DNA from: Solirubrobacterales bacterium
GTDB lineage: Bacteria; Actinomycetota; Thermoleophilia; Solirubrobacterales; 70-9
Reading direction: 5' to 3'
Length of the DNA: 64,000 bases
Assembly: GCA_035472395.1 (NCBI GenBank)
Contig: DATIPC010000098.1
Span: 11,631-75,630, forward strand
Shown: in pieces, positions 2,057 through 36,821 of the stretch
Position numbering within the stretch: position 1 is the first letter of the stretch
Layout: every line of letters begins with the position of its first letter
Notes under the pieces: model-generated
What the model saw: only the letters and a program-made list of their open reading frames with translations
Database searches by the model: none
What the model was told of the DNA's origin: nothing
Made by a program: the position numbers and the translations under genes

Positions 2057-5417
<3,361 letters not shown>

Positions 5418-5453: not shown

Positions 5454-6641
5454 CTACAACCCGAGCCAGATCTTGATCTTCAGCCAGAGCAGTTCGACGA
5501 GGTCGTTGAGCGCCGGCGAGGTGATCACGACGATCGTCAGCAGGATCGCGAAGGCGGCGAGGAAGAGGGCGACGGGGGCAAAGGTCGACGGGGGGTTGTA
5601 GAGGCGGCTGACCCCCTTTGCATCGACCAGCTTCTCGCCGATCCGCAGGCGGGTGAGGAAGGTGGAGGACATGCCACCGCGCTTGCGGTCGAGGAACTCG
5701 ATCAGGTTGAAATGGGCGCCGACGCTGACGATCAGGTCGGCCCCCTTCTCATAGGACATCAGCATCGCCACGTCCTCGCTGGTCCCCGCGGCCGGCACCA
5801 GGGTGTGCTCCAGTCCCAGCTCGAGCAAGCGCTCGCGACCGGGCGCGCGCCCATCCGGGTAGGCGTGGACGATCAGCTCCGCTCCGCAGCGCAACGCCTC
5901 GTCCCCGGCGGAGTCCATGTCGCCGAGGATGATGTCGGGCTTGAGGCCGGCCTCGAGGCAACCGTTGGCGCCGCCGTCGACAGCGACGACGATCGGCCGG
6001 ACGTCGCGGATGTAGGCCCGCAGCGCCTTCAGGTCGCGGCGATGGCGGTCGCCACGGACGACGATCAGCACATGGCGGTCGCGGAACGAGGTCCGGGTTG
6101 GAGGGAACTCGACCGCGTCGGTCAGCAGGTCGGCCTCCTGACGCACGTGGGCAACCGTGTTCTCGGCGAATTCGGCAAGCGCCTCGTCGACCCGCTCGCG
6201 CTGCTCGGCGAGGCGGCCTTCGAGCTCACCGGCACCAAGGACCCTGCCCCGCAGGATCTCCCGCCCACCGACGCTCACGGCGCCGGCCACGATCGTCACC
6301 TCGCCACCGTCGTCGAGCTGCTCGAAGGGATCCGCGGCGGCGATGTCGATCAGCGTCACGCCACTGCGCACGAGAAGCAGCGGGCCCGCGTTCGGGTAGC
6401 GACCGTCACTCGACTCGGAGGCGTTGAGCACGGCGCGGGCACCGGCGGCAATCAGCTCCTCGGCGGCGATCCGGTCGATGTTGACGTGATCGATCACCGC
6501 GACGTCGCCGGGGCGCAACCGCTTGACCAGATCCTTAGTGCGACGACCGAGCCGAGCAGTGCCGTGAATCGCCTCCTCTGCGTCGGCCCCATTGCGACGC
6601 GACAACAGCGCAGGCAAGCGACGACGACTGGCGGTAGCCAC
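5454..6641 (-). CDS. steA: putative cytokinetic ring protein SteA
   Basis: 395 aa. GTARLGRRTKDLVKRLRPGDVAVIDHVNIDR plus a C-terminal TM helix. Sits between recN and the mctB-like gene. GTG start. Confidence 0.8.
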   Translation of the reverse strand: MATASRRRLPALLSRRNGADAEEAIHGTARLGRRTKDLVKRLRPGDVAVIDHVNIDRIAAEELIAAGARAVLNASESSDGRYPNAGPLLLVRSGVTLIDIAAADPFEQLDDGGEVTIVAGAVSVGGREILRGRVLGAGELEGRLAEQRERVDEALAEFAENTVAHVRQEADLLTDAVEFPPTRTSFRDRHVLIVVRGDRHRRDLKALRAYIRDVRPIVVAVDGGANGCLEAGLKPDIILGDMDSAGDEALRCGAELIVHAYPDGRAPGRERLLELGLEHTLVPAAGTSEDVAMLMSYEKGADLIVSVGAHFNLIEFLDRKRGGMSSTFLTRLRIGEKLVDAKGVSRLYNPPSTFAPVALFLAAFAILLTIVVITSPALNDLVELLWLKIKIWLGL

Positions 6642-10131: not shown

Positions 10132-10983
10132 CTAGACGGCGAGGTGGCCGAACTTCTCGCGTATGCGCTGGTAGAAGCTCGTCCCCGGCAACTGGGCGAG
10201 CCGCGCGACGCCGTCGGCGAAGCGGACCTCGAGCGCCGCCCCCGACCCGAGCGTGCCGGTGTGGGCGCCGTCGATCGCGACGTCAACCGGCTCGCGACCA
10301 TCGGCGTTGCCGACGTGGAGAACGTCGCTTGGCGCGACGACGAGAGCGCGTGCCGTTAGTGAGTGAGGAGCGACGTAGGAGACCACGTAACCCTTCACCC
10401 CCCAGGCGAGGATCGGCCCATGGTTGGCGAGGTTGTAGCCGGTCGAGCCGACCGGGGTGGCGGCGACGAGGCCGTCGCAGCGGACACGCCCGACCTCCTC
10501 GCCGGCGATCTTGTAGCTCAGCTCGGCAACCCGCTCGTGCGGGCGGCGGATGAAGCTGACGTCGTTGAGGGCAACCTGGGCCTCGCCCCCCACCTCGATC
10601 TCGAGGCCGGGCAGCTCGATGGCCTCCGTCTCGCCAGCGAAGGCGCGGCGCATCCCCTCCTCGGCCTGATCGCGCTCGACCGCGGCGAGAAAGCCGACCG
10701 TGCCGAAGTTGACCCCGAAGACCGGCACACCGCTGCGGGCGAAGTGGCGCAGCGCGTAGAGGATCGACCCGTCGCCGCCGAGGACGAGGCAGAGGTCGGC
10801 CTGGCGCGGCAGCGCATCGACGATCTCGACCCCGGCGGCGGCCTCGCCGTGCTTGGCCACCTCCTTCGCGGTGGCGAGCAGCCGCCAGCCGGCATCGCGG
10901 GCGGCGGAGGTCGCGACCGCCACCGCGTCGGTTGCGGCTGGCGGGTGCGAGTGGGTGATCAGGGCGGCGACGCGTTCGCTCAC
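10132..10983 (-). CDS. nadK: NAD kinase
   Basis: GGDGSILYALR motif and NFGTVGFL. Start trimmed to GTG 10983, which makes a GTGA overlap with the tlyA stop; the track start 11043 overlaps tlyA. Confidence 0.85.
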   Translation of the reverse strand: MSERVAALITHSHPPAATDAVAVATSAARDAGWRLLATAKEVAKHGEAAAGVEIVDALPRQADLCLVLGGDGSILYALRHFARSGVPVFGVNFGTVGFLAAVERDQAEEGMRRAFAGETEAIELPGLEIEVGGEAQVALNDVSFIRRPHERVAELSYKIAGEEVGRVRCDGLVAATPVGSTGYNLANHGPILAWGVKGYVVSYVAPHSLTARALVVAPSDVLHVGNADGREPVDVAIDGAHTGTLGSGAALEVRFADGVARLAQLPGTSFYQRIREKFGHLAV

Positions 10984-11762
10984 GGATCGACCTCGCGGGC
11001 GGCGGCCTCGAGGTCGGCGAGCGGCTCGCCCTCCCCCCCGCACCAGACGAAGGTCTCGCGGTTGCCCTTCGGCCCCGGCAGGCCGGAGGAAGCGAAGCCG
11101 CGAACCGACAGGCCGAGGTCGGCAGCGGCACGGGCGACGGCAATGATCGCCTCGTGCCGGTCGGCGGCATCGCGGACGACGCCCTTGCGGACCCGCTCGC
11201 GACCGAGCTCGAACTGGGGCTTGACCATCGCCAGAACCTCACCGCCAGGGCGCAGGCAGGAGGCGACGGTGGGAAGCACCTTGGTCAGTGAGATGAAGGA
11301 GACGTCGACGGCGGCAAGATCCGGGCGAAAGGGCAGGTCCGCCGGGACGAGGGCACGCGCGTTGAGGCGCTCCAGCACGGTCACGCGGGGATCCTCGCGC
11401 ATGCGCAGGTCGATCTGGCCGTAGGCGACGTCGAGCGCCGCCACCCGCGCCGCGCCGCGCTGCAGAAGGCAATCGGTGAAGCCCCCCGTCGAGGCGCCGG
11501 TATCGAGGCAGTCGCGCCCGCTGACGTCGATGCCGAGCGCGTCGAGGGCGTTGTCGAGCTTGATCCCTCCCCGAGAGACGAAGCGCGGGCCCTGCTCGAC
11601 CCGGAAGTCGGCCTCGGGGTCGACCAGCTGACTGGGACGCAGCGCCACCGGGCCATCTTCGCCAACCCGGACCTCGCCGGCGCGGACCGCGCCGGCAGCC
11701 GCAGAGCGCGACGGGAAGAGACCGCGCTCGGCCAGAACCGCGTCTATCCGCGCCTTCGCCAC
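10980..11762 (-). CDS. tlyA: TlyA family rRNA (cytidine-2'-O)-methyltransferase
   Basis: S4-like N-terminus VAKARIDAVLAERGL and SAM motif DTGASTGGFTDCLLQRGA. GTG 11762 is preferred over the upstream TTG 11792. Confidence 0.8.
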   Translation of the reverse strand: MAKARIDAVLAERGLFPSRSAAAGAVRAGEVRVGEDGPVALRPSQLVDPEADFRVEQGPRFVSRGGIKLDNALDALGIDVSGRDCLDTGASTGGFTDCLLQRGAARVAALDVAYGQIDLRMREDPRVTVLERLNARALVPADLPFRPDLAAVDVSFISLTKVLPTVASCLRPGGEVLAMVKPQFELGRERVRKGVVRDAADRHEAIIAVARAAADLGLSVRGFASSGLPGPKGNRETFVWCGGEGEPLADLEAAAREVDP

Positions 11763-11806
11763 GCAGGAACGGTACAGCCGCCCATCCGGCAATCGTGAAG
11801 TGGCCC

Positions 11807-11835
11807 TTGCCAGATGTTTAGCGAGACCTTAGAAT
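11807..11835 (+). promoter_or_regulatory. sigma-70-type promoter, TTGCCA-17 nt-TAGAAT
   Basis: Read directly: -35 at 11807-11812, 17-nt spacer, -10 at 11830-11835. Faces away from tlyA into a region free of long ORFs. Confidence 0.4.
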
Positions 11836-12059
11836 TGGGTAGAAGAATTGCCGCCGTGAGCCGATAGCGCGCAGAAACAGGCCTCTGTGACTCGGCTCAC
11901 ACACAAACCGCACGTATGTTCGTATCTTGATTCAAGGATTCGCGTGAGAAACCCGATGAAAGGCTGAACAAAAATCTTCCTGGCTGGGTCCCGCGCCGCC
12001 CATATACGCAGTTGACTCCCATCGACTCCGTCCGCGGCACATCAAGGGCTCACCTACCT

Positions 12060-12119
12060 CCCACGGATCCACATATATAGAGATACATATCTCTCCTCCC
12101 TGTAGTAACCCCAGAAACG
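12060..12119. repeat. repeat family A, copy 1 (conserved ~60-nt element)
   Basis: CCCACGGATCC..CATAT..AGAGATAC..CTCTCCTCCCTGTAGTAACCCCAGAAACG aligns with 15272-15333; the last 24 nt are almost identical. Confidence 0.7.
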
Positions 12120-12149
12120 CCCCTCCTCCCCGGAGGGGCGTTTTCTGTT
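12116..12149 (+). terminator. intrinsic terminator
   Basis: 11-bp perfect stem AACGCCCCTCC (12116-12126) / GGAGGGGCGTT (12132-12142), 5-nt loop, then TTTTCTGTT. Confidence 0.65.
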
Positions 12150-12330
12150 GGGTTGGGCTCTGGCAAGCGGAAAAAGTAGGCCTGTGCCCCGAGAGGGTGG
12201 GTCGGCTCGCTAGGCGCGTCGTACATGACCCGGAGGTTTTGCCAAAGCAGCATTGGGTAGCCAAACCCTCGGGTTGGACAAGCATCCCAACGCATCAGGC
12301 GTGGGAACCGAAGCAGTCGAGGAGAGACCT

Positions 12331-12465
12331 GTGATTGGAGCAGTTATAGGAGCGCTGATCGTCGTTGCCATCGTGCTCGTCCTGCTCAAGGTTGCCGTGG
12401 CGGGAGGCGTGCTTGGACTGATCGCGATCATCCTCCTCATCCTGCTCTTGCTGGGGAGAATCTGA
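12331..12465 (+). CDS. 44-aa hydrophobic mini-protein
   Basis: GTG 12331 is preceded by GAGGAG. VIGAVIGALIVVAIVLVLLKVAVAGGVLGLIAIILLILLLLGRI. Stop overlaps the next ATG (TGATG). The track start at 12253 is a TTG with no SD. Confidence 0.45.
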   Translation: MIGAVIGALIVVAIVLVLLKVAVAGGVLGLIAIILLILLLLGRI

Positions 12466-12695
12466 TGACCGTCGGCGGCTCGATCCTCTTGATAGCCGTA
12501 GGGGCGATTCTCTACTTTGCCACCAACCTGCACCTCGCCCACATCAGCATCGACACCGTCGGGCTGATCCTGATGATCGCTGGCGCCGCCGGACTGGTTC
12601 TCGGCCTGATTCAGCAGGCAATCTGGTCGCGACGCTCACGCCGCGACGTCATCGTCGAGGAACGCCGTGACCCCCGCGACCCGCCCCCCTACTAG
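12465..12695 (+). CDS. DUF6458-like small membrane protein
   Basis: 76 aa. MTVGGSILLIAVGAILYFA...VGLILMIAGAAGLVLGLI pattern, then a charged tail. Confidence 0.6.
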   Translation: MTVGGSILLIAVGAILYFATNLHLAHISIDTVGLILMIAGAAGLVLGLIQQAIWSRRSRRDVIVEERRDPRDPPPY

Positions 12696-12707
12696 AGGAG
12701 GAACCGA

Positions 12708-12983
12708 ATGTCCACCGTGCTGATCGTGATCATCGCAGTAGTCGTCCTCGCCCTCGCCGCTCTGCTCGTCTCGGCGGCCTCCCGGCGCAAACGCACACGG
12801 CGGATCGCCGAGACCCAGACCCAGGCCAAACAGGACGACGCTTCCCACCACCGCGAGCAAGCCCAGCGGGCCCGCACCGAGGCGGAGCTGGCGCAGGAGC
12901 GAGCGAAGCGGGCTGCCGCCGAGGCGGAGTTGAACGAGCGTCAAGCGAGCGAGCGCGAGCAGGAGCTGAAGAGCAGCGAATAG
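12708..12983 (+). CDS. membrane-anchored coiled-coil protein
   Basis: 91 aa. GGAGG SD upstream, N-terminal TM helix, then a Glu/Arg/Ala/Gln-rich helix. Confidence 0.6.
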   Translation: MSTVLIVIIAVVVLALAALLVSAASRRKRTRRIAETQTQAKQDDASHHREQAQRARTEAELAQERAKRAAAEAELNERQASEREQELKSSE

Positions 12984-13064
12984 GTAGGTGCCTCAGGGCT
13001 GACAAAGACGCACCCGGACCACAGGGCCGACTGGGCACTCCGGTGTAGGGAAGGGACCGGAGAG

Positions 13065-13223
13065 ATGTTCAGCTGTAAAAGATGTAGAAGCAGGTTCCAC
13101 CCGGAGCGGGCGGCGGCGATCGTCAATTGCCCTCGGTGCCTGCTGAGGGACGGCATCTCGTCGCCGCTCAGTTTCAGGCAGCGGCCCGAGGTGGGACTGA
13201 AAGGGCCAGGGCGAGCGAGATAG
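13065..13223 (+). CDS. 52-aa CxxC...CxxC zinc-ribbon mini-protein (below the ORF-track cutoff)
   Basis: My own translation: MFSCKRCRSRFHPERAAAIVNCPRCLLRDGISSPLSFRQRPEVGLKGPGRAR. GGAG lies just upstream. GC3 is high except in the first codons. Confidence 0.35.
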   Translation: MFSCKRCRSRFHPERAAAIVNCPRCLLRDGISSPLSFRQRPEVGLKGPGRAR

Positions 13224-18935: not shown

Positions 18936-18973
18936 GGCTGTCTATTCTCGCGCTTCGGGCGGCCGGTGGGCGC

Positions 18974-19534
18974 CTACGCGCGCGAGATGTACTCGCCGCT
19001 GCGGGTGTCGACCCGAATCGACTCGCCCTCGTCGATGAAGAGCGGGACCTGGACGACCACGCCCGACTCCAGGGTCGCCGGCTTGTTGCCGCCACCCGAG
19101 GCGGTGTCGCCCTTCACGCCGGGGTCGGTCTGCGTCACCTTCATCTCGATCGCGCCGGCCACCTGCACATCGCTGGGCTGCTCGTCGACGAAGAGGACGT
19201 CGACCTCGTCGTTGGGCAAGACCCACCTCATCGCCTCGCCGACGGCGCCAGCCGGGATCTCGATCTGCTCGTAGTCCTGGCTGTCCATGAAGACAGCGGC
19301 CTCGCCGGAGTCGTAGAGGTACTGCATCTTGCGCGACTCGGTGTGGACGGGCCTGAACTTCTCCCCCGCCCTGAACGTTTTGTCCTGAACGGAGCCGTCG
19401 TCGAGCTTGCGCAGCTTGGTCCGCACGAACGCCCCGCCCTTGCCGGGCTTGACGTGCTGGAACTCGATGATCTTGAAGACGGACCCATCGATTTCGATGT
19501 GGCTGCCGTTCTTGAATTGGTTGGTCGATATCAA
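18974..19534 (-). CDS. efp: elongation factor P
   Basis: 186 aa. ISTNQFKNGSHIEIDGSVFKIIEFQHVKPGKGGAFVRTKLR. The start codon is TTG. Confidence 0.95.
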   Translation of the reverse strand: MISTNQFKNGSHIEIDGSVFKIIEFQHVKPGKGGAFVRTKLRKLDDGSVQDKTFRAGEKFRPVHTESRKMQYLYDSGEAAVFMDSQDYEQIEIPAGAVGEAMRWVLPNDEVDVLFVDEQPSDVQVAGAIEMKVTQTDPGVKGDTASGGGNKPATLESGVVVQVPLFIDEGESIRVDTRSGEYISRA

Positions 19535-19648
19535 GGTTTTTACCTGCTAATTAGCGCTTTTTCTATGTGGGTGCCGATCTGGCCACCTCGGTGCGACAAA
19601 GCCTATTGGAGCCGTCACGTTCGGGACTTTGGTCAATGGTACGGAGCC

Positions 19649-20590
19649 TCACTGGCTCAGCAGGCCCAAATCGGCGTAGCAACCGAAGATGATTTCCTCC
19701 ACGAGAGACAGTTTTTCTTTAACGGCCTGCGACAAATCGCGGCCGCGATGAGGCGTCGTTAGGAAGTCGTCATTGACGATGTCCTCGACTTCACTCGCGT
19801 ACCGGATTTTTAGCTCGCCCCGAACCCGCTGCACGCCAAACCAAGCAAGCTCCACTGCGCGATGGTGGGCGAGCTGGTCACGCACCGAATGGCCATCCTC
19901 AGTCCCGCGAACGCCTGAAAGATCCTGCTCGGCCAGCCGACACTTGATTGCGTCAGAGCACTCGGTTGGTTCGCGACCATCCACAGTCCGATCAAGTCGG
20001 CGGAAACTCCCACCGTCAGTCTTAAAGAAGGCGGAGATCGCTATCGCCGCATAGTCCAGAGTGCGTCGCAGCGCGAACTGGAGCGCGGCATACTCAGCGC
20101 TCAGCGACGGGATTCGGAAGCTCGTATCCCGACCTTCCGGAAAGAGATCCTCTCGCCGTTCGCAGAACGAGATCACCTCGTTCTCAATCTGCTCGATTCG
20201 GCTGACGTGGTAATGGCAAGCGGTCATACCGTCTCTAACGGACTGAGAGCCCCCGCGTAGGACAGCAAGCCAATCGCGCTGCGCCCCTCCGTGCGGTGCA
20301 AGACGACCGAGCGCTGGGCCGATTGGATCACGCCAGTGCTCGACAATCTCGTTCAAGCGCTCAGTCTGCGCAAGAGGCAACCAGTCGCCGATTACCTCTT
20401 GTAGGGCTACGTGGCTTTCAATTGCATCAAGGAAGAACCCCGCCTGTCGCGCATCGTCGTTGGCTTCCGCCTCCTCGCTCGTCAGCCGATCACCCTCATT
20501 GAGATCCCCGGCTTCGCCCCCGCGCCATACGGTGGGCGCGCAACCCGGCCCGTGGACCGACAGCAAGCCAAAGGCAAACCGCAGGCGCAC
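19649..20590 (-). CDS. orphan 313-aa protein with an R-x4-H (HEPN-like) motif; start uncertain
   Basis: Long ORF in a low-GC segment. VRDQLAHH at 19865-19885. No family recognised otherwise. The only in-frame starts near the 5' end are GTG 20590 and TTG 20566, both overlapping the upstream ORF. Confidence 0.5.
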   Translation of the reverse strand: MRLRFAFGLLSVHGPGCAPTVWRGGEAGDLNEGDRLTSEEAEANDDARQAGFFLDAIESHVALQEVIGDWLPLAQTERLNEIVEHWRDPIGPALGRLAPHGGAQRDWLAVLRGGSQSVRDGMTACHYHVSRIEQIENEVISFCERREDLFPEGRDTSFRIPSLSAEYAALQFALRRTLDYAAIAISAFFKTDGGSFRRLDRTVDGREPTECSDAIKCRLAEQDLSGVRGTEDGHSVRDQLAHHRAVELAWFGVQRVRGELKIRYASEVEDIVNDDFLTTPHRGRDLSQAVKEKLSLVEEIIFGCYADLGLLSQ

Positions 20591-20891
20591 CGTCCTCCGG
20601 GCTATTACGGTAGATCAGACGGAAGCGCGGCTTGCCTTTGTGCGTCTCGATATCGAAGCGGATTCGACGGCAATCGGCCAGCTCAGGGTGGCGACCTGAG
20701 CCCATCAGCTCGCCGGTGTGCGGATTCGTCTCGCACTCCAAGAACAGCTCAGCGATTCGACGCTTCAGCAAATCGATTTCGTCGTGGTCGGCCTCGGTTG
20801 CATTACCCGAAAGCGCCGTCAACTCGGCGATATCGCCCTTTACTCCTTCGGCAAGCTCGACCTTGACCTTGGGAGCGGTTGCGTCGCCCAC
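20496..20891 (-). CDS. RelE/ParE-superfamily toxin-like protein
   Basis: 131 aa. NPHTGELMG...CRRIRFDIETHKGKPRFRLIYRNSPEDGAPAVCLWLAVGPRAG follows the RelE/ParE pattern (nP.G..L......R.Rvg.yRiiY.......v.i..vg.R). Confidence 0.55.
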   Translation of the reverse strand: MGDATAPKVKVELAEGVKGDIAELTALSGNATEADHDEIDLLKRRIAELFLECETNPHTGELMGSGRHPELADCRRIRFDIETHKGKPRFRLIYRNSPEDGAPAVCLWLAVGPRAGLRAHRMARGRSRGSQ

Positions 20892-20894
20892 AAC

Positions 20895-21116
20895 CTAGCG
20901 AACGTCAATGCCGAGGTCGGCCAGCGCCTCGGCGCCATCCTCAGCTCGCCCGGCTGCGCCACTTCGAACGCGCTCTGCGGCGAGAGCCTCGATCTCGTCG
21001 TCGGCTTGGCGATCGTGAAGGATTGCGATCTCGCCCTGCATTTGGCGCATCTGGTCTTCCAAGTCACTCAGCTTCTCGAAGAGCTGTCTGGATTTCGTCC
21101 TAGGCAAGAGCGGCAT
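20895..21116 (-). CDS. putative antitoxin (73-aa helical protein)
   Basis: Immediately upstream of the RelE/ParE-like ORF (3-nt gap). Charged helical sequence. GAGG SD upstream. Assignment is by position only. Confidence 0.4.
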   Translation of the reverse strand: MPLLPRTKSRQLFEKLSDLEDQMRQMQGEIAILHDRQADDEIEALAAERVRSGAAGRAEDGAEALADLGIDVR

Positions 21117-21188
21117 CGCGAACCAGAATACCTCTGCCGTCCGCCGGATTCGCCAGTCTGCGCGATCTCGCAGGCTATGTGCCTGTTG

Positions 21189-21210
21189 ACCAACTAGACA
21201 ACTGGTTGGT
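21189..21210. promoter_or_regulatory. inverted repeat ACCAAC-10 nt-GTTGGT upstream of the cassette (possible operator)
   Basis: Read directly, about 75-95 nt upstream of the 73-aa ORF start. Confidence 0.3.
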
Positions 21211-21283
21211 TGAGATCACGGCGGCGAATCCTAGAGGGGTCGGCCAAACTCCGGCAGTCTCTAATGTAAGGGTGGCCTGGGAG

Positions 21284-35525: not shown

Positions 35526-36525
35526 GTCGCACAGCGTAGAGCCGCACTCAGATCGGCAGCGATACCCGCCCCGTCGTCACGGAGCTGGCGCCAGGTCACT
35601 CGCAACACGCGCCATCCGCCGACCATGAGCAACCTGTCGCGCTCGCGGTCGGACTCGAACGCCTTCGCCGTCCGGTGCACAGCCCGTCCATCGAGCTCGA
35701 CGATCAACCGCTCGCTCCTCCAGAGACAGTCGACCGAGAAGAACCGACCACCGACCGCAACATCGGCATTGAGCCGTGGGCGCGGCAGCCCACACGAATC
35801 AAGCAGCGCTGCAAAGCGCTCCTCCAAGTCGTTCTTGGTGACCCCGCGTGCCACGACCTCGTCGTCCAACAGAGCGCGGAGGGCCGCTGATCCTCGCCGC
35901 CGCGGATACCGCCCAAGCAGATCCGGGATCGACAGCCGATCGGTCAGGCCCTGCACTTCGACCTCGCTGAAAGCTCGCTCGAGCTGCCGCCTAGATACAA
36001 CAGCCGCGAGATCCAGCACCGTCCGTGGCACGGTGGTAACAGGGATCCCGTCGACAACGGCCCGCTCGTCGTTTGGCACCGAGGACGCGTGAGAGACGAT
36101 GCGGGAACGACCTCGAGCATGGGTCGGCCGCGTCACTTCGAAGGCCCGACTCGATCGCGGCACTATGCCCCATAACTCCCCCGCAGATCGATGGCTGAGC
36201 ACCGCCTCAGGTCCCAATGCGAGGGTCGCCGCCATCCATCGTCCACTGGTCGAGACGAGAGAATGGCCCACTGCATAGACCCCACGATGGATCAGATGCA
36301 ACGTCCCTCGTTGGAGGCGACCACCGATAGCGCGACGCCCAACCCCGGCATCGAGCAGCTGATATCTACGACCACCCCCTGCTGTGCGTCGGCCAACCCA
36401 GCAATCACCCGATCGACATGAGCTGCGCTCCCATCCAGCGAATGAAGTTCACCTTTGGCCCCTGTGAGGGGCTCAACGTGAACTTCGTCAGAGACGAAGC
36501 CTCCGGTCGACTTATGGATTGCCAT
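35522..36525 (-). pseudogene. DUF559 / Vsr-like endonuclease-domain gene, apparently frameshifted near 36295-36305
   Basis: ORF 35522..36301 starts abruptly at HLIHRGVYAVG and ends with LIVELDGRAVHRT...RDRLLMVGGWRVLRVTW. The expected N-terminal segment (DRVIAGLADAQQGVVVD...GLGVA...) is in another frame in ORF 36292..36525. Confidence 0.5.
36444..36499. repeat. repeat family B, copy 1 (palindromic element)
   Basis: GAAGTTCAC-CTTTG-GCCCCT-gtg-AGGGGC-TCAAC-GTGAACTTC, followed by the overlapping hairpin CTTCGTC-aga-GACGAAG. Confidence 0.7.
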
Positions 36526-36821
36526 TGCCCCGAGCCTGACCTGGCTCGACGCACGCGTGGCGCGCCAAATGTCAAATGTTTCGCACGAAAAAGAGGCTCC
36601 AACCCGCCGTTGCCGCCCCTGGCTTTGATCCCTTGAAGTAAAGGGTGGGCGCCTCCTCCGGATCCCACAGGACCAAGAGAGATCGGCCCCCGCGCCGTTT
36701 GTGTTGGGTCAAACGGTGGGACGGCTCTCGCACGGGCTCGAGCCTCGGTCCAACCGTACCACCGCGGCGGCTCTGTGGCGACTGGAGATCGGTCCAGATG
36801 ACCCTCGCCCGGGGCTTCGCC

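Follow-up and report, generated by a model that had tools for sequence, protein, structure and literature searches.

A probable miniature integrase-less islet with a toxin-antitoxin-like pair and a variable cargo gene in the 5' end of efp of a Solirubrobacterales bacterium

A low-GC cassette of three small open reading frames (ORFs) lies beside the housekeeping gene efp in a 64,000-nt stretch of DNA from a Solirubrobacterales bacterium (contig DATIPC010000098.1; the whole stretch is called the window here), and the question is what kind of unit these three genes form. The original prediction, made from the sequence alone, took them for a horizontally acquired toxin-antitoxin (TA) pair with a third, possibly HEPN-type, effector, that is a tripartite TA or defence-like module. 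We compared the cassette with loci of relatives (79 species-level loci in the survey; L001 and similar numbers denote the loci compared) and propose another answer. With a probability of roughly 60%, the 1.7-kb segment at 19515-21221 is a miniature, integrase-less islet of the type of a cis-mobilizable element (CIME), inserted in the 5' end of efp and consisting of a TA-like pair and one variable cargo gene.

The repeat-bounded segment and its junction with efp

The cassette was found to contain three co-oriented ORFs on the minus strand, of 73, 131 and 313 aa as originally described: ORF1 (20895-21116), ORF2 (20496-20891) and ORF3 (19649-20590 from a GTG start, with the conserved part at 19649-20479). 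It is bracketed by a 22-nt direct repeat with 18/22 identical positions and a spacing of 1685 nt. The right-hand copy (19515..19536, minus strand; CCTTGATATCGACCAACCAATT) consists of 2 nt upstream of efp, the TTG start and codons 2-7, and would be the regenerated target end, while the other copy (21200-21221) is located in the leader of ORF1. The efp start reads TTG ATA TCG ACC AAC CAA TT and the ORF1 leader GTG ATC TCA ACC AAC CAG TT. Compared with 300 shuffles by local alignment, the p value of the repeat was 0.003 for the window, below 0.003 for L009 and 0.01 for L008, and the register was always identical. The repeat of the efp start occurs in the same register and co-varies in L009, L008, L006 and L070; the leader copy follows each locus's own efp, with GAA twice in L009 and L006 and CAG/CAA in the window, L070 and L008.

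The leader copy belongs to a longer remnant (21165..21235, minus strand), in which a native efp 5' untranslated region (UTR; TCTAGGATTCGCCGCC) is followed by the GTG-initiated repeat and then by decayed codons. This leader, at about 21165-21235, aligned with the native efp 5'-UTR and N-terminal codons of L014, L074 and L080, which have no gene between the pair and efp, and it translates as V-I-S-T-N-Q before it decays. Judged by this alignment, the ORF1 leader is a fossil efp 5' end, i.e. the displaced fragment of the target.

The same fossil accounts for an inverted repeat, ACCAAC-N10-GTTGGT, for which an operator role had been considered. The inverted repeat is present at 21189-21210, but its left arm ACCAAC represents efp codons 4-5 within the decayed efp 5' end, and the operator role was not upheld. 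The right arm GTTGGT lies in decayed sequence without an efp counterpart, and the arms are perfect only in the window and L012; the changes in relatives break pairs and none is compensatory. The leader can form nested hairpins (-55 kcal/mol, z = -3.8). An RNA element was nevertheless ruled out by the missing Rfam match, the missing covariation support and a positive covariation term, and the fossil efp explains the sequence. A dispersed repeat of the repetitive extragenic palindromic (REP) or miniature inverted-repeat transposable element (MITE) type was rejected since the leader is single-copy in the window and locus-specific. An integron gene cassette was also rejected, as the ACCAAC/GTTGGT arms are only 10 nt apart (attC 57-141 nt) and derive from efp codons, and no integrase gene is present in the region; no dedicated attC model was run. 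A search of the window leader for a decayed tRNA remnant returned only short chance matches to tRNA-Glu and tRNA-Val.

Next to the fossil, the promoter-proximal region (21117..21164, minus strand; GAATCCGGCGGACGGCAGAGGTATTCT) was conserved in all efp-linked loci, as seen in alignments and pattern matches. A -10-like TATTCT (21125-21130) ends 8 nt before the ORF1 ATG, so the mRNA would be leaderless or near-leaderless. The sigma-70 consensus scan of the ORF1 upstream region returned no promoter; we infer one at TATTCT. At the other end of the cassette, the spacer between ORF3 and efp (19537..19648, minus strand) lies within the segment bounded by the repeats and includes a conserved AT-rich stretch in front of efp (CACATAGAAAAAGCGCTAATTAGCAGGTAAAAACC). 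Conservation was seen in most loci where ORF2 does not abut efp, while the ORF2 3' end and a different UTR are present instead in L014, L074, L080 and L019; in L014, L074 and L080 ORF2 ends just 12-50 nt before efp. The spacer presumably carries islet-supplied expression signals of efp, including a putative promoter, and efp expression may depend on islet sequences in both arrangements.

The composition of the cassette is also atypical. The low GC content reported for it was confirmed gene by gene: GC is 0.59-0.62 and GC at third codon positions (GC3) 0.65-0.70 in ORF1-ORF3, against a GC3 of 0.84-0.94 in the flanking dxs-to-aroB genes, and the region is one of three stretches of the 64-kb window that fall more than 2 sd below the mean GC. 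Of the two 60-nt samples quoted in the original prediction, 19681-19740 has 28/60 G+C as given, and 18961-19020 is indeed G+C-rich, at 44/60 and not 43. In relatives the pair remains at a GC3 of 0.63-0.77 in every lineage compared. Together with the duplicated efp start that brackets the cassette and the fossil efp 5' end at its far edge, this atypical composition supports horizontal acquisition. When ORF1, ORF2 and ORF3 were compared with their L001 orthologues, dN/dS was 0.12, 0.17 and 0.13, respectively; by these ratios all three genes are under purifying selection.

A divergent 160-aa gene borders the three ORFs on one side and efp (18974-19534) on the other. Comparison of the efp-side interval in relatives, as had been suggested, showed the trio kept at the same place in the closest relative and other genes or nothing after ORF2 in the others. 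Neither ORF1-ORF3 nor the divergent neighbour had a Pfam, NCBIfam or PADLOC match at E <= 1, and PDB sequence and profile searches with ORF1, ORF2 and ORF3 gave nothing meaningful. The other two window stretches more than 2 sd below the mean GC are located at 11400-13100 and 35700-36800; the former has short ORFs only, including those of small hydrophobic proteins at 12465-12695 and 12708-12983.

The ORF1-ORF2 pair, the slot after it and the sister islets

The constant part of the islet is the ORF1-ORF2 pair. For ORF2, at least 402 homologues with 62-85% identity were found, and all source-named ones are from Solirubrobacterales or Thermoleophilia. ORF1 precedes it as a constant partner in about 80 species of Solirubrobacterales/Thermoleophilia and is upstream of ORF2 in all surveyed loci save 2-3 that are truncated or rearranged, and in most of the approximately 80 loci the two genes are separated by a 3-4 nt gap or overlap by 4 nt. 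The AlphaFold (AF2) model of ORF2, based on a 36-sequence alignment, had a predicted local distance difference test score (pLDDT) of 79 and a predicted template modelling score (pTM) of 0.72. Its predicted element order is beta-alpha-alpha-beta-beta-beta-alpha, as expected for the RelE/ParE fold, and the five best Foldseek matches in PDB were all ParE/HigB2 toxins (5ceg_B, 8a0x_C/D, 8c26_A and 6xrw_C) with a probability of 0.95-1.0 and a target-normalised TM of 0.47-0.69. One JGI record gives the Txe/YoeB label to an ORF2 homologue, and the strand motifs RFRLIY and ...VGPR are present. No RelE/ParE model in Pfam/NCBIfam matched ORF2 at E <= 1 and the PDB-sequence profile search was also empty; without a match at sequence level, ORF2 is therefore placed outside the 13 Pfam families covered in a survey of the BECR-fold RelE/ParE superfamily (PMC11980606).

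ORF1 is a small helical protein with a strongly conserved C-terminal motif, ADDE.EA.AAERIRSGAA...DGAEAL..LGI. It matched no known antitoxin (family models and PDB profile search) and has no recognisable DNA-binding domain. PaaA2 also has no DNA-binding domain. The assignment of ORF2 as a RelE/ParE-type protein is thus supported by the model and its structural matches, and that of ORF1 as its partner by the constant and tight upstream position. ORF2 is a putative toxin of predicted ParE/RelE fold and ORF1 a putative antitoxin; we label the pair type II TA because of the fold, the gene order and the coupling, and toxic and antitoxic activities would follow from these. Most likely, the pair acts as an addiction or stabilisation module and as the autoregulated promoter unit of the islet. 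ORF2 was truncated or frameshifted in L070, L074, L078 and L019 (efp-linked, long-read metagenome-assembled genomes (MAGs)), which could reflect genuine toxin decay or assembly indel errors.

The position after ORF2, which we call the slot, was occupied very differently. Across the 79 species-level loci, 72 candidate downstream ORFs fell into 61 clusters. Slot genes encode SIR2_2 in L002, DUF4365-TPR in L009, an AAA_15/AAA_21 ATPase in L013, GNAT in L078 and, in L006, DUF4145, which is a HEPN family (PMC3710099). The slots of L004, L008 and L010 contain unknown proteins (240 aa and 202/350 aa), those of L014, L074, L080 and L019 are empty, and other contents include Abi_alpha and many unknowns. 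Within 2.5 kb of the pair, PADLOC models matched about twice as often downstream as upstream (189 vs 90), and the downstream matches include ThsA/Dsr2, AriA, Old, AbiE and methyltransferases; Pfam detected integrases on both sides of the pair among the surveyed loci. Since the slot is variable or empty, the three genes do not form a tripartite system of constant make-up: the pair stands on its own, and what follows it is cargo. In L003 (391-12384) a copy of the pair that is not linked to efp was found within a defence-type island, with an HTH/DUF6036 pair upstream, a sigma-70 region 2 protein gene directly after ORF2, and two ThsB_TIR genes and a type I restriction HsdR downstream.

Away from efp, the same pair was found at tRNA genes. 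In many non-efp loci the slot gene is directly followed by a complete tRNA on the other strand; seven of these loci have tRNA-Glu-CTC and five have tRNA-Val-GAC or -CAC. The tRNA 3' end recurs as a copy of 17-53 nt that is located 167-203 nt upstream of ORF1. The DNA shared by L028 and L056 extends exactly from the leader to the slot gene (1.4 kb, 90% identity) between unrelated flanks, and the segment shared by L046 and L069 is 1.63 kb. In loci with a common slot gene the pairs are 0.91-0.93 identical (98-99th percentile) and the flanks have no similarity. A CIME is an element that keeps its attachment (att) sites and is without integration genes (PMC5704250; definitions of CIMEs and of islands integrated in tRNA genes (tDNA) also in PMC4383910), and the corresponding features, i.e. 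direct repeats of the target end, a displaced distal fragment and att sites kept without an integrase gene, are present here.

Tandem and inverted units were observed in several loci. L046 (3849-7385) contains about 2.1 copies of a 1,694-nt unit, which are 98% identical and have a 42-nt piece of the tRNA-Glu 3' end wherever two of them meet. The same piece occurs three times in L041, at 4471, 5568 and 9808. ARAGORN detected no complete tRNA-Glu in the L046 or L041 locus. L038 contains two copies of leader plus ORF1-ORF2, at 3499-4284 (-) and 4420-5210 (+), which are inverted head to head about 135 nt apart. In L073 a 28-nt tRNA-Val fragment (6409-6436) was located 94 nt after ORF2, while the complete tRNA-Val (10137-10210) was found 3.8 kb further on, past a cytochrome P450 gene; the DNA between islet and tRNA is either another element or host DNA.

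Under the preferred reading, the islet would enter the 5' end of efp and duplicate the efp start, the displaced efp 5' fragment would decay upstream of ORF1, and the islet would supply the present efp upstream region and first codons. The constant module would be the Thermoleophilia-specific ORF1-ORF2 pair, which would stabilise the islet and whose promoter could drive the cargo; the variable module would be the single gene between ORF2 and the attachment site (ORF3 here). Sister islets with the same pair would attach at tRNA-Glu(CTC) or tRNA-Val 3' ends, and a recombinase acting in trans would mobilise the islet; identical units between unrelated flanks and tandem arrays with att junctions point to such movement indirectly. 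The cargo could be exchanged when a further islet integrates at the att site (tandem accretion) and the conserved pairs then recombine. Accretion and pair recombination would explain the mosaic pair sequences that are decoupled from their flanks.

ORF3 and its family

ORF3 had been regarded as an orphan, which was not borne out. A word-indexed search gave 5 relatives, while an exhaustive profile search gave 218 representatives, mostly of 270-300 aa and across phyla, and one database entry, from a Solirubrobacterales MAG, is identical to ORF3. The family has no annotation and consists of alpha-helical proteins of about 280 aa. In a 76-member alignment (about 25% identity), H128, E166, R237 and H242 were invariant, and Y127, E136, Y167, R175, R176, Y180 and D238 were conserved in at least 90% of the members. 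The family motifs are G-L-x-A-x-x-Y-H, F-E-Y-Q-A-F-x-F-A-x-R-R-T-L-E-Y and S-V-R-D-R-L-A-H; H128 belongs to the YH of the first and E166 to the FEYxAF..RR of the second. The annotated GTG start of ORF3 (20590) overlaps ORF2 by 95 nt, and the closest orthologue (L001) starts at an ATG 18 nt past the ORF2 stop that is missing in the window. The start candidates in the window are this GTG or a CTG at 20481 preceded by GAGGGTG.

The sequence VRDQLAHH (19862-19885) corresponds to ORF3 residues 236-243, with the R237-H242 stretch (RDxxAH) at 19865-19882. The original prediction had numbered R237 and H242 correctly, and their invariance in distant homologues bears out the R-x4-H motif. HEPN proteins contain Rx4-6H with a polar residue (N/D/H) right after R (PMC3710099); in the ORF3 family this residue is D, N, S or Q, so the motif obeys the rule. 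The invariant E166 lies in a long helix upstream of RDxxAH, in the context E-Y-x-A-F...R-R compared with E-x3-[KR] in helix 2 of typical HEPN proteins.

The predicted HEPN fold was not recovered. The ORF3 model is confident (pLDDT 91.7, pTM 0.87), and its motif-bearing helix is short and followed by a beta-hairpin. Foldseek matched it to neither HEPN nor any other known fold in PDB and BFVD (best E-values 0.64 and 0.49, respectively), which is no proof of absence of HEPN because Foldseek is weak on helical bundles. No HEPN Pfam model matched the 76 family members at E <= 0.1. Kinship to DUF4145 or Abi_alpha was also rejected, as hhalign against one protein of each gave a probability below 1%. 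Since there was no profile, structure or hhalign match, we do not count ORF3 among the HEPN proteins; its motif is HEPN-like, and the helical fold that carries the motif is unrecognised.

Relatives of ORF3 were found in Pseudomonas syringae, Stutzerimonas, Gallionella and low-GC metagenome contigs, always annotated as hypothetical and always solitary; the family was absent from the viral contigs searched, and the longer members showed no informative domain fusions. Most ORF3 homologues occur without the pair; they adjoin it in L061 and L085 and lie beside PanA in P. syringae. In the latter (L105/L106:6541-8918 and L107:2005-5522), the ORF3-family gene follows a SocA_Panacea (PanA) antitoxin gene at a distance of about 0.9 kb, and in L107 a phage-integrase fragment is nearby. 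In L102-L104 the same unannotated 347-aa gene always precedes another ORF3-family member. Most likely, ORF3 would be a stand-alone nuclease-type effector of abortive infection or conflict.

Alternative explanations, related systems and meaning

Several observations weigh against the CIME-like islet. We found no integrase in the window cassette or next to it (three ORFs searched with Pfam/NCBIfam/PADLOC) nor in the 2.0-kb islet of L058, and of two larger islet ORFs checked for an integrase one was a cytochrome P450 and the other had no match. The islets may be no more than remnants in decay. In the window the two copies of the repeat agree only imperfectly (18/22), and we estimate that about 0.4 such matches would be expected by chance in the 1.9-kb region, so its significance is carried by the position, the reading register and the co-variation across loci. 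The fossil leader is missing from the efp-linked loci L004, L010, L002, L007 and L019, and the pair of L014, L074 and L080 lies upstream of the native efp UTR; these two facts imply at least two insertion histories. The Foldseek E-values of ORF2 are marginal (2.6e-3 to 6e-2), and neither ORF1 nor ORF2 matched an experimentally characterised TA family in sequence. Defence-type genes occur upstream of the pair too, and many slot ORFs were called by a crude ORF heuristic in 70% GC DNA. Moreover, the lack of co-divergence of pair and flanks, with rho of about 0.02 against EFP+NusB or the upstream dehydrogenase and control values of 0.74 and 0.53 in efp-linked loci, was measured on short proteins with a narrow identity range. 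A strictly vertical inheritance of the pair with turnover of the cargo only was not supported by this divergence analysis.

Two other readings of the whole locus were weighed against the islet. The trio could be a modular three-component defence system, in which ORF1-ORF2 is the conserved sensor or regulator of a swappable effector, as in systems with a constant core and a variable effector. A co-oriented slot gene begins no more than 30 nt past the ORF2 stop in about 18 loci, classical effector domains occur among the slot genes, the pair and the slot gene travel as one unit, and all three genes show the purifying selection described above. This reading is nevertheless quite unlikely. The pair is intact without a slot gene in L014 and L044, the slot genes of L061 and L085, which belong to the ORF3 family, are convergent to it, and many loci have gaps of 100-400 nt after ORF2 or lack a co-oriented ORF. 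No domain, not even a hidden one, is common to the slot proteins, and ORF2 is 60-85% identical regardless of the neighbouring gene. Some slots hold complete systems themselves, e.g. AbiE and methyltransferases, while the ORF3 family and other slot families are widespread without the pair. The tripartite module originally proposed fails on the same grounds, as the third gene differs in nearly every species or is absent and the relatives of ORF3 elsewhere stand alone. Alternatively, a resident TA pair could lie beside a passive insertion hot spot, where illegitimate or homologous recombination brings unrelated genes in between ORF2 and efp, no discrete mobile element is involved and the efp repeat is a coincidence or a local duplication. 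The gene order short-chain dehydrogenase/reductase (SDR), 160-aa gene, pair, slot, efp and nusB is held in at least 17 species-level genomes, there is no integrase, and core-gene-flanked defence hot spots are already known (PMC10250203). We consider this improbable, since the repeat changes along with the efp allele of its locus and belongs to the longer fossil efp 5' end, the att repeats of the sister loci are unambiguously derived from tRNAs and keep a constant distance to ORF1, unit-length segments are shared between unrelated flanks and tandem arrays have att junctions, and the pair divergence is decoupled from both flanks.

Regarding ORF3 alone, the protein might be neither nuclease nor toxin. 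H128, E166, D238 and H242 could form a metal site on a D-x3-H helix face, as in helical bundles of the DinB/MDMPI type, and ORF3 would then be a small-molecule-modifying enzyme or an immunity-type cargo protein. The residues concerned are indeed H, E, D and H, one family member has a weak DinB match (E = 0.018), no HEPN fold was matched and the Stutzerimonas homologue sits within a run of small hypothetical genes. Nevertheless, no DinB-like structure appeared among the Foldseek matches, R237 is as invariant as H242 and the next residue (D/N/S/Q) fits the HEPN rule (PMC3710099), and the contexts, beside PanA in P. syringae and in a TA slot here, resemble those of conflict systems, so that a metal site is unlikely on the whole.

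Compared with described elements, the islet is most like CIMEs and tDNA-integrated islands (Islander logic): it has target-end repeats of the attL/attR type, a displaced fragment and a regenerated target, it is without integration and transfer genes, its composition is atypical, and its relatives show tandem accretion. Unlike these, it is just 1-4 kb long, and its constant TA-like pair, which always lies equally far from attL, is usually accompanied by a single variable gene. In contrast to tDNA islands, the target in the window is no tRNA 3' end but the 5' end of a protein-coding housekeeping gene, and in contrast to CIMEs no parental integrative and conjugative element (ICE) or integrative and mobilizable element (IME) and no cognate integrase were identified for it. 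Fixed positions with different defence-type genes per genome are also a property of core-gene-flanked defence hot spots and of the defence cargo of mobile elements (PMC10250203, PMC10201445); unlike there, the slot usually holds one gene, is anchored by the TA-like pair and is delimited by att-type repeats.

The components can be compared in the same way. With ParDE/RelBE type II pairs (BECR fold) the pair shares the predicted ParE-like fold of ORF2 and a tightly coupled small upstream partner, and the likeness does not distinguish an RNase from a gyrase poison. It differs from them in that ORF2 falls outside the RelE/ParE models of Pfam/NCBIfam and has an N-terminal extension of about 45 aa, and in that ORF1 has neither a recognisable DNA-binding domain nor an antitoxin family match. 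The clustering of a predicted ParE/RelE-fold toxin, a small antitoxin and a third gene recalls paaR2-paaA2-parE2 (PMC8630535) and toxin-antitoxin-chaperone systems; in those a dedicated regulator or chaperone always takes the third place, whereas here the third gene is a different and unrelated one in almost every species or is absent. ORF3, in turn, is like HEPN abortive-infection proteins (AbiD/AbiF-type and DUF4145-type; PMC3710099) in its size of about 280 aa, its helical structure, the invariant R-[polar]-x-x-[small]-H with an upstream acidic residue, its solitary occurrence and its atypical composition, and in L006, a close relative, the slot is filled by a genuine DUF4145-HEPN gene. It is unlike them in having no HEPN profile or structure match despite a model with a pLDDT of 92, and in the short motif helix followed by a beta-hairpin.

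A wider proposal, which we offer tentatively, is that Thermoleophilia harbour an undescribed family of integrase-less "cassette shuttles". In these, the ParE-fold pair would serve both as an addiction module and as a homology handle for cassette replacement, and a swappable defence gene would lie beside the attachment site. The targets would be tRNA 3' ends and the efp 5' end, with the expression signals of efp supplied by the islet, and ORF3 would be the founding member of a new family of nucleases that combine a HEPN-like motif with a fold not recognised so far in structure searches.

In conclusion, what appeared to be an orphan "tripartite TA" becomes a defined recurrent element, a repeat-bounded islet of 1-4 kb in which the TA-like pair is constant and the variable position contains defence-type and unknown genes. 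We regard it as a TA-anchored, CIME-like mini-island whose single-gene slot is hypervariable and which in the window lies in efp. If this is true, the slot would offer a ready collection of anti-phage gene candidates from a soil lineage that is uncultured, among them ORF3 and several further families that lack any annotation, and a TA pair would form the backbone of a cassette-exchange system. The islet would also show that a mobile element can replace the 5' end and the upstream region of an important housekeeping gene, which raises the question of how efp expression is controlled.

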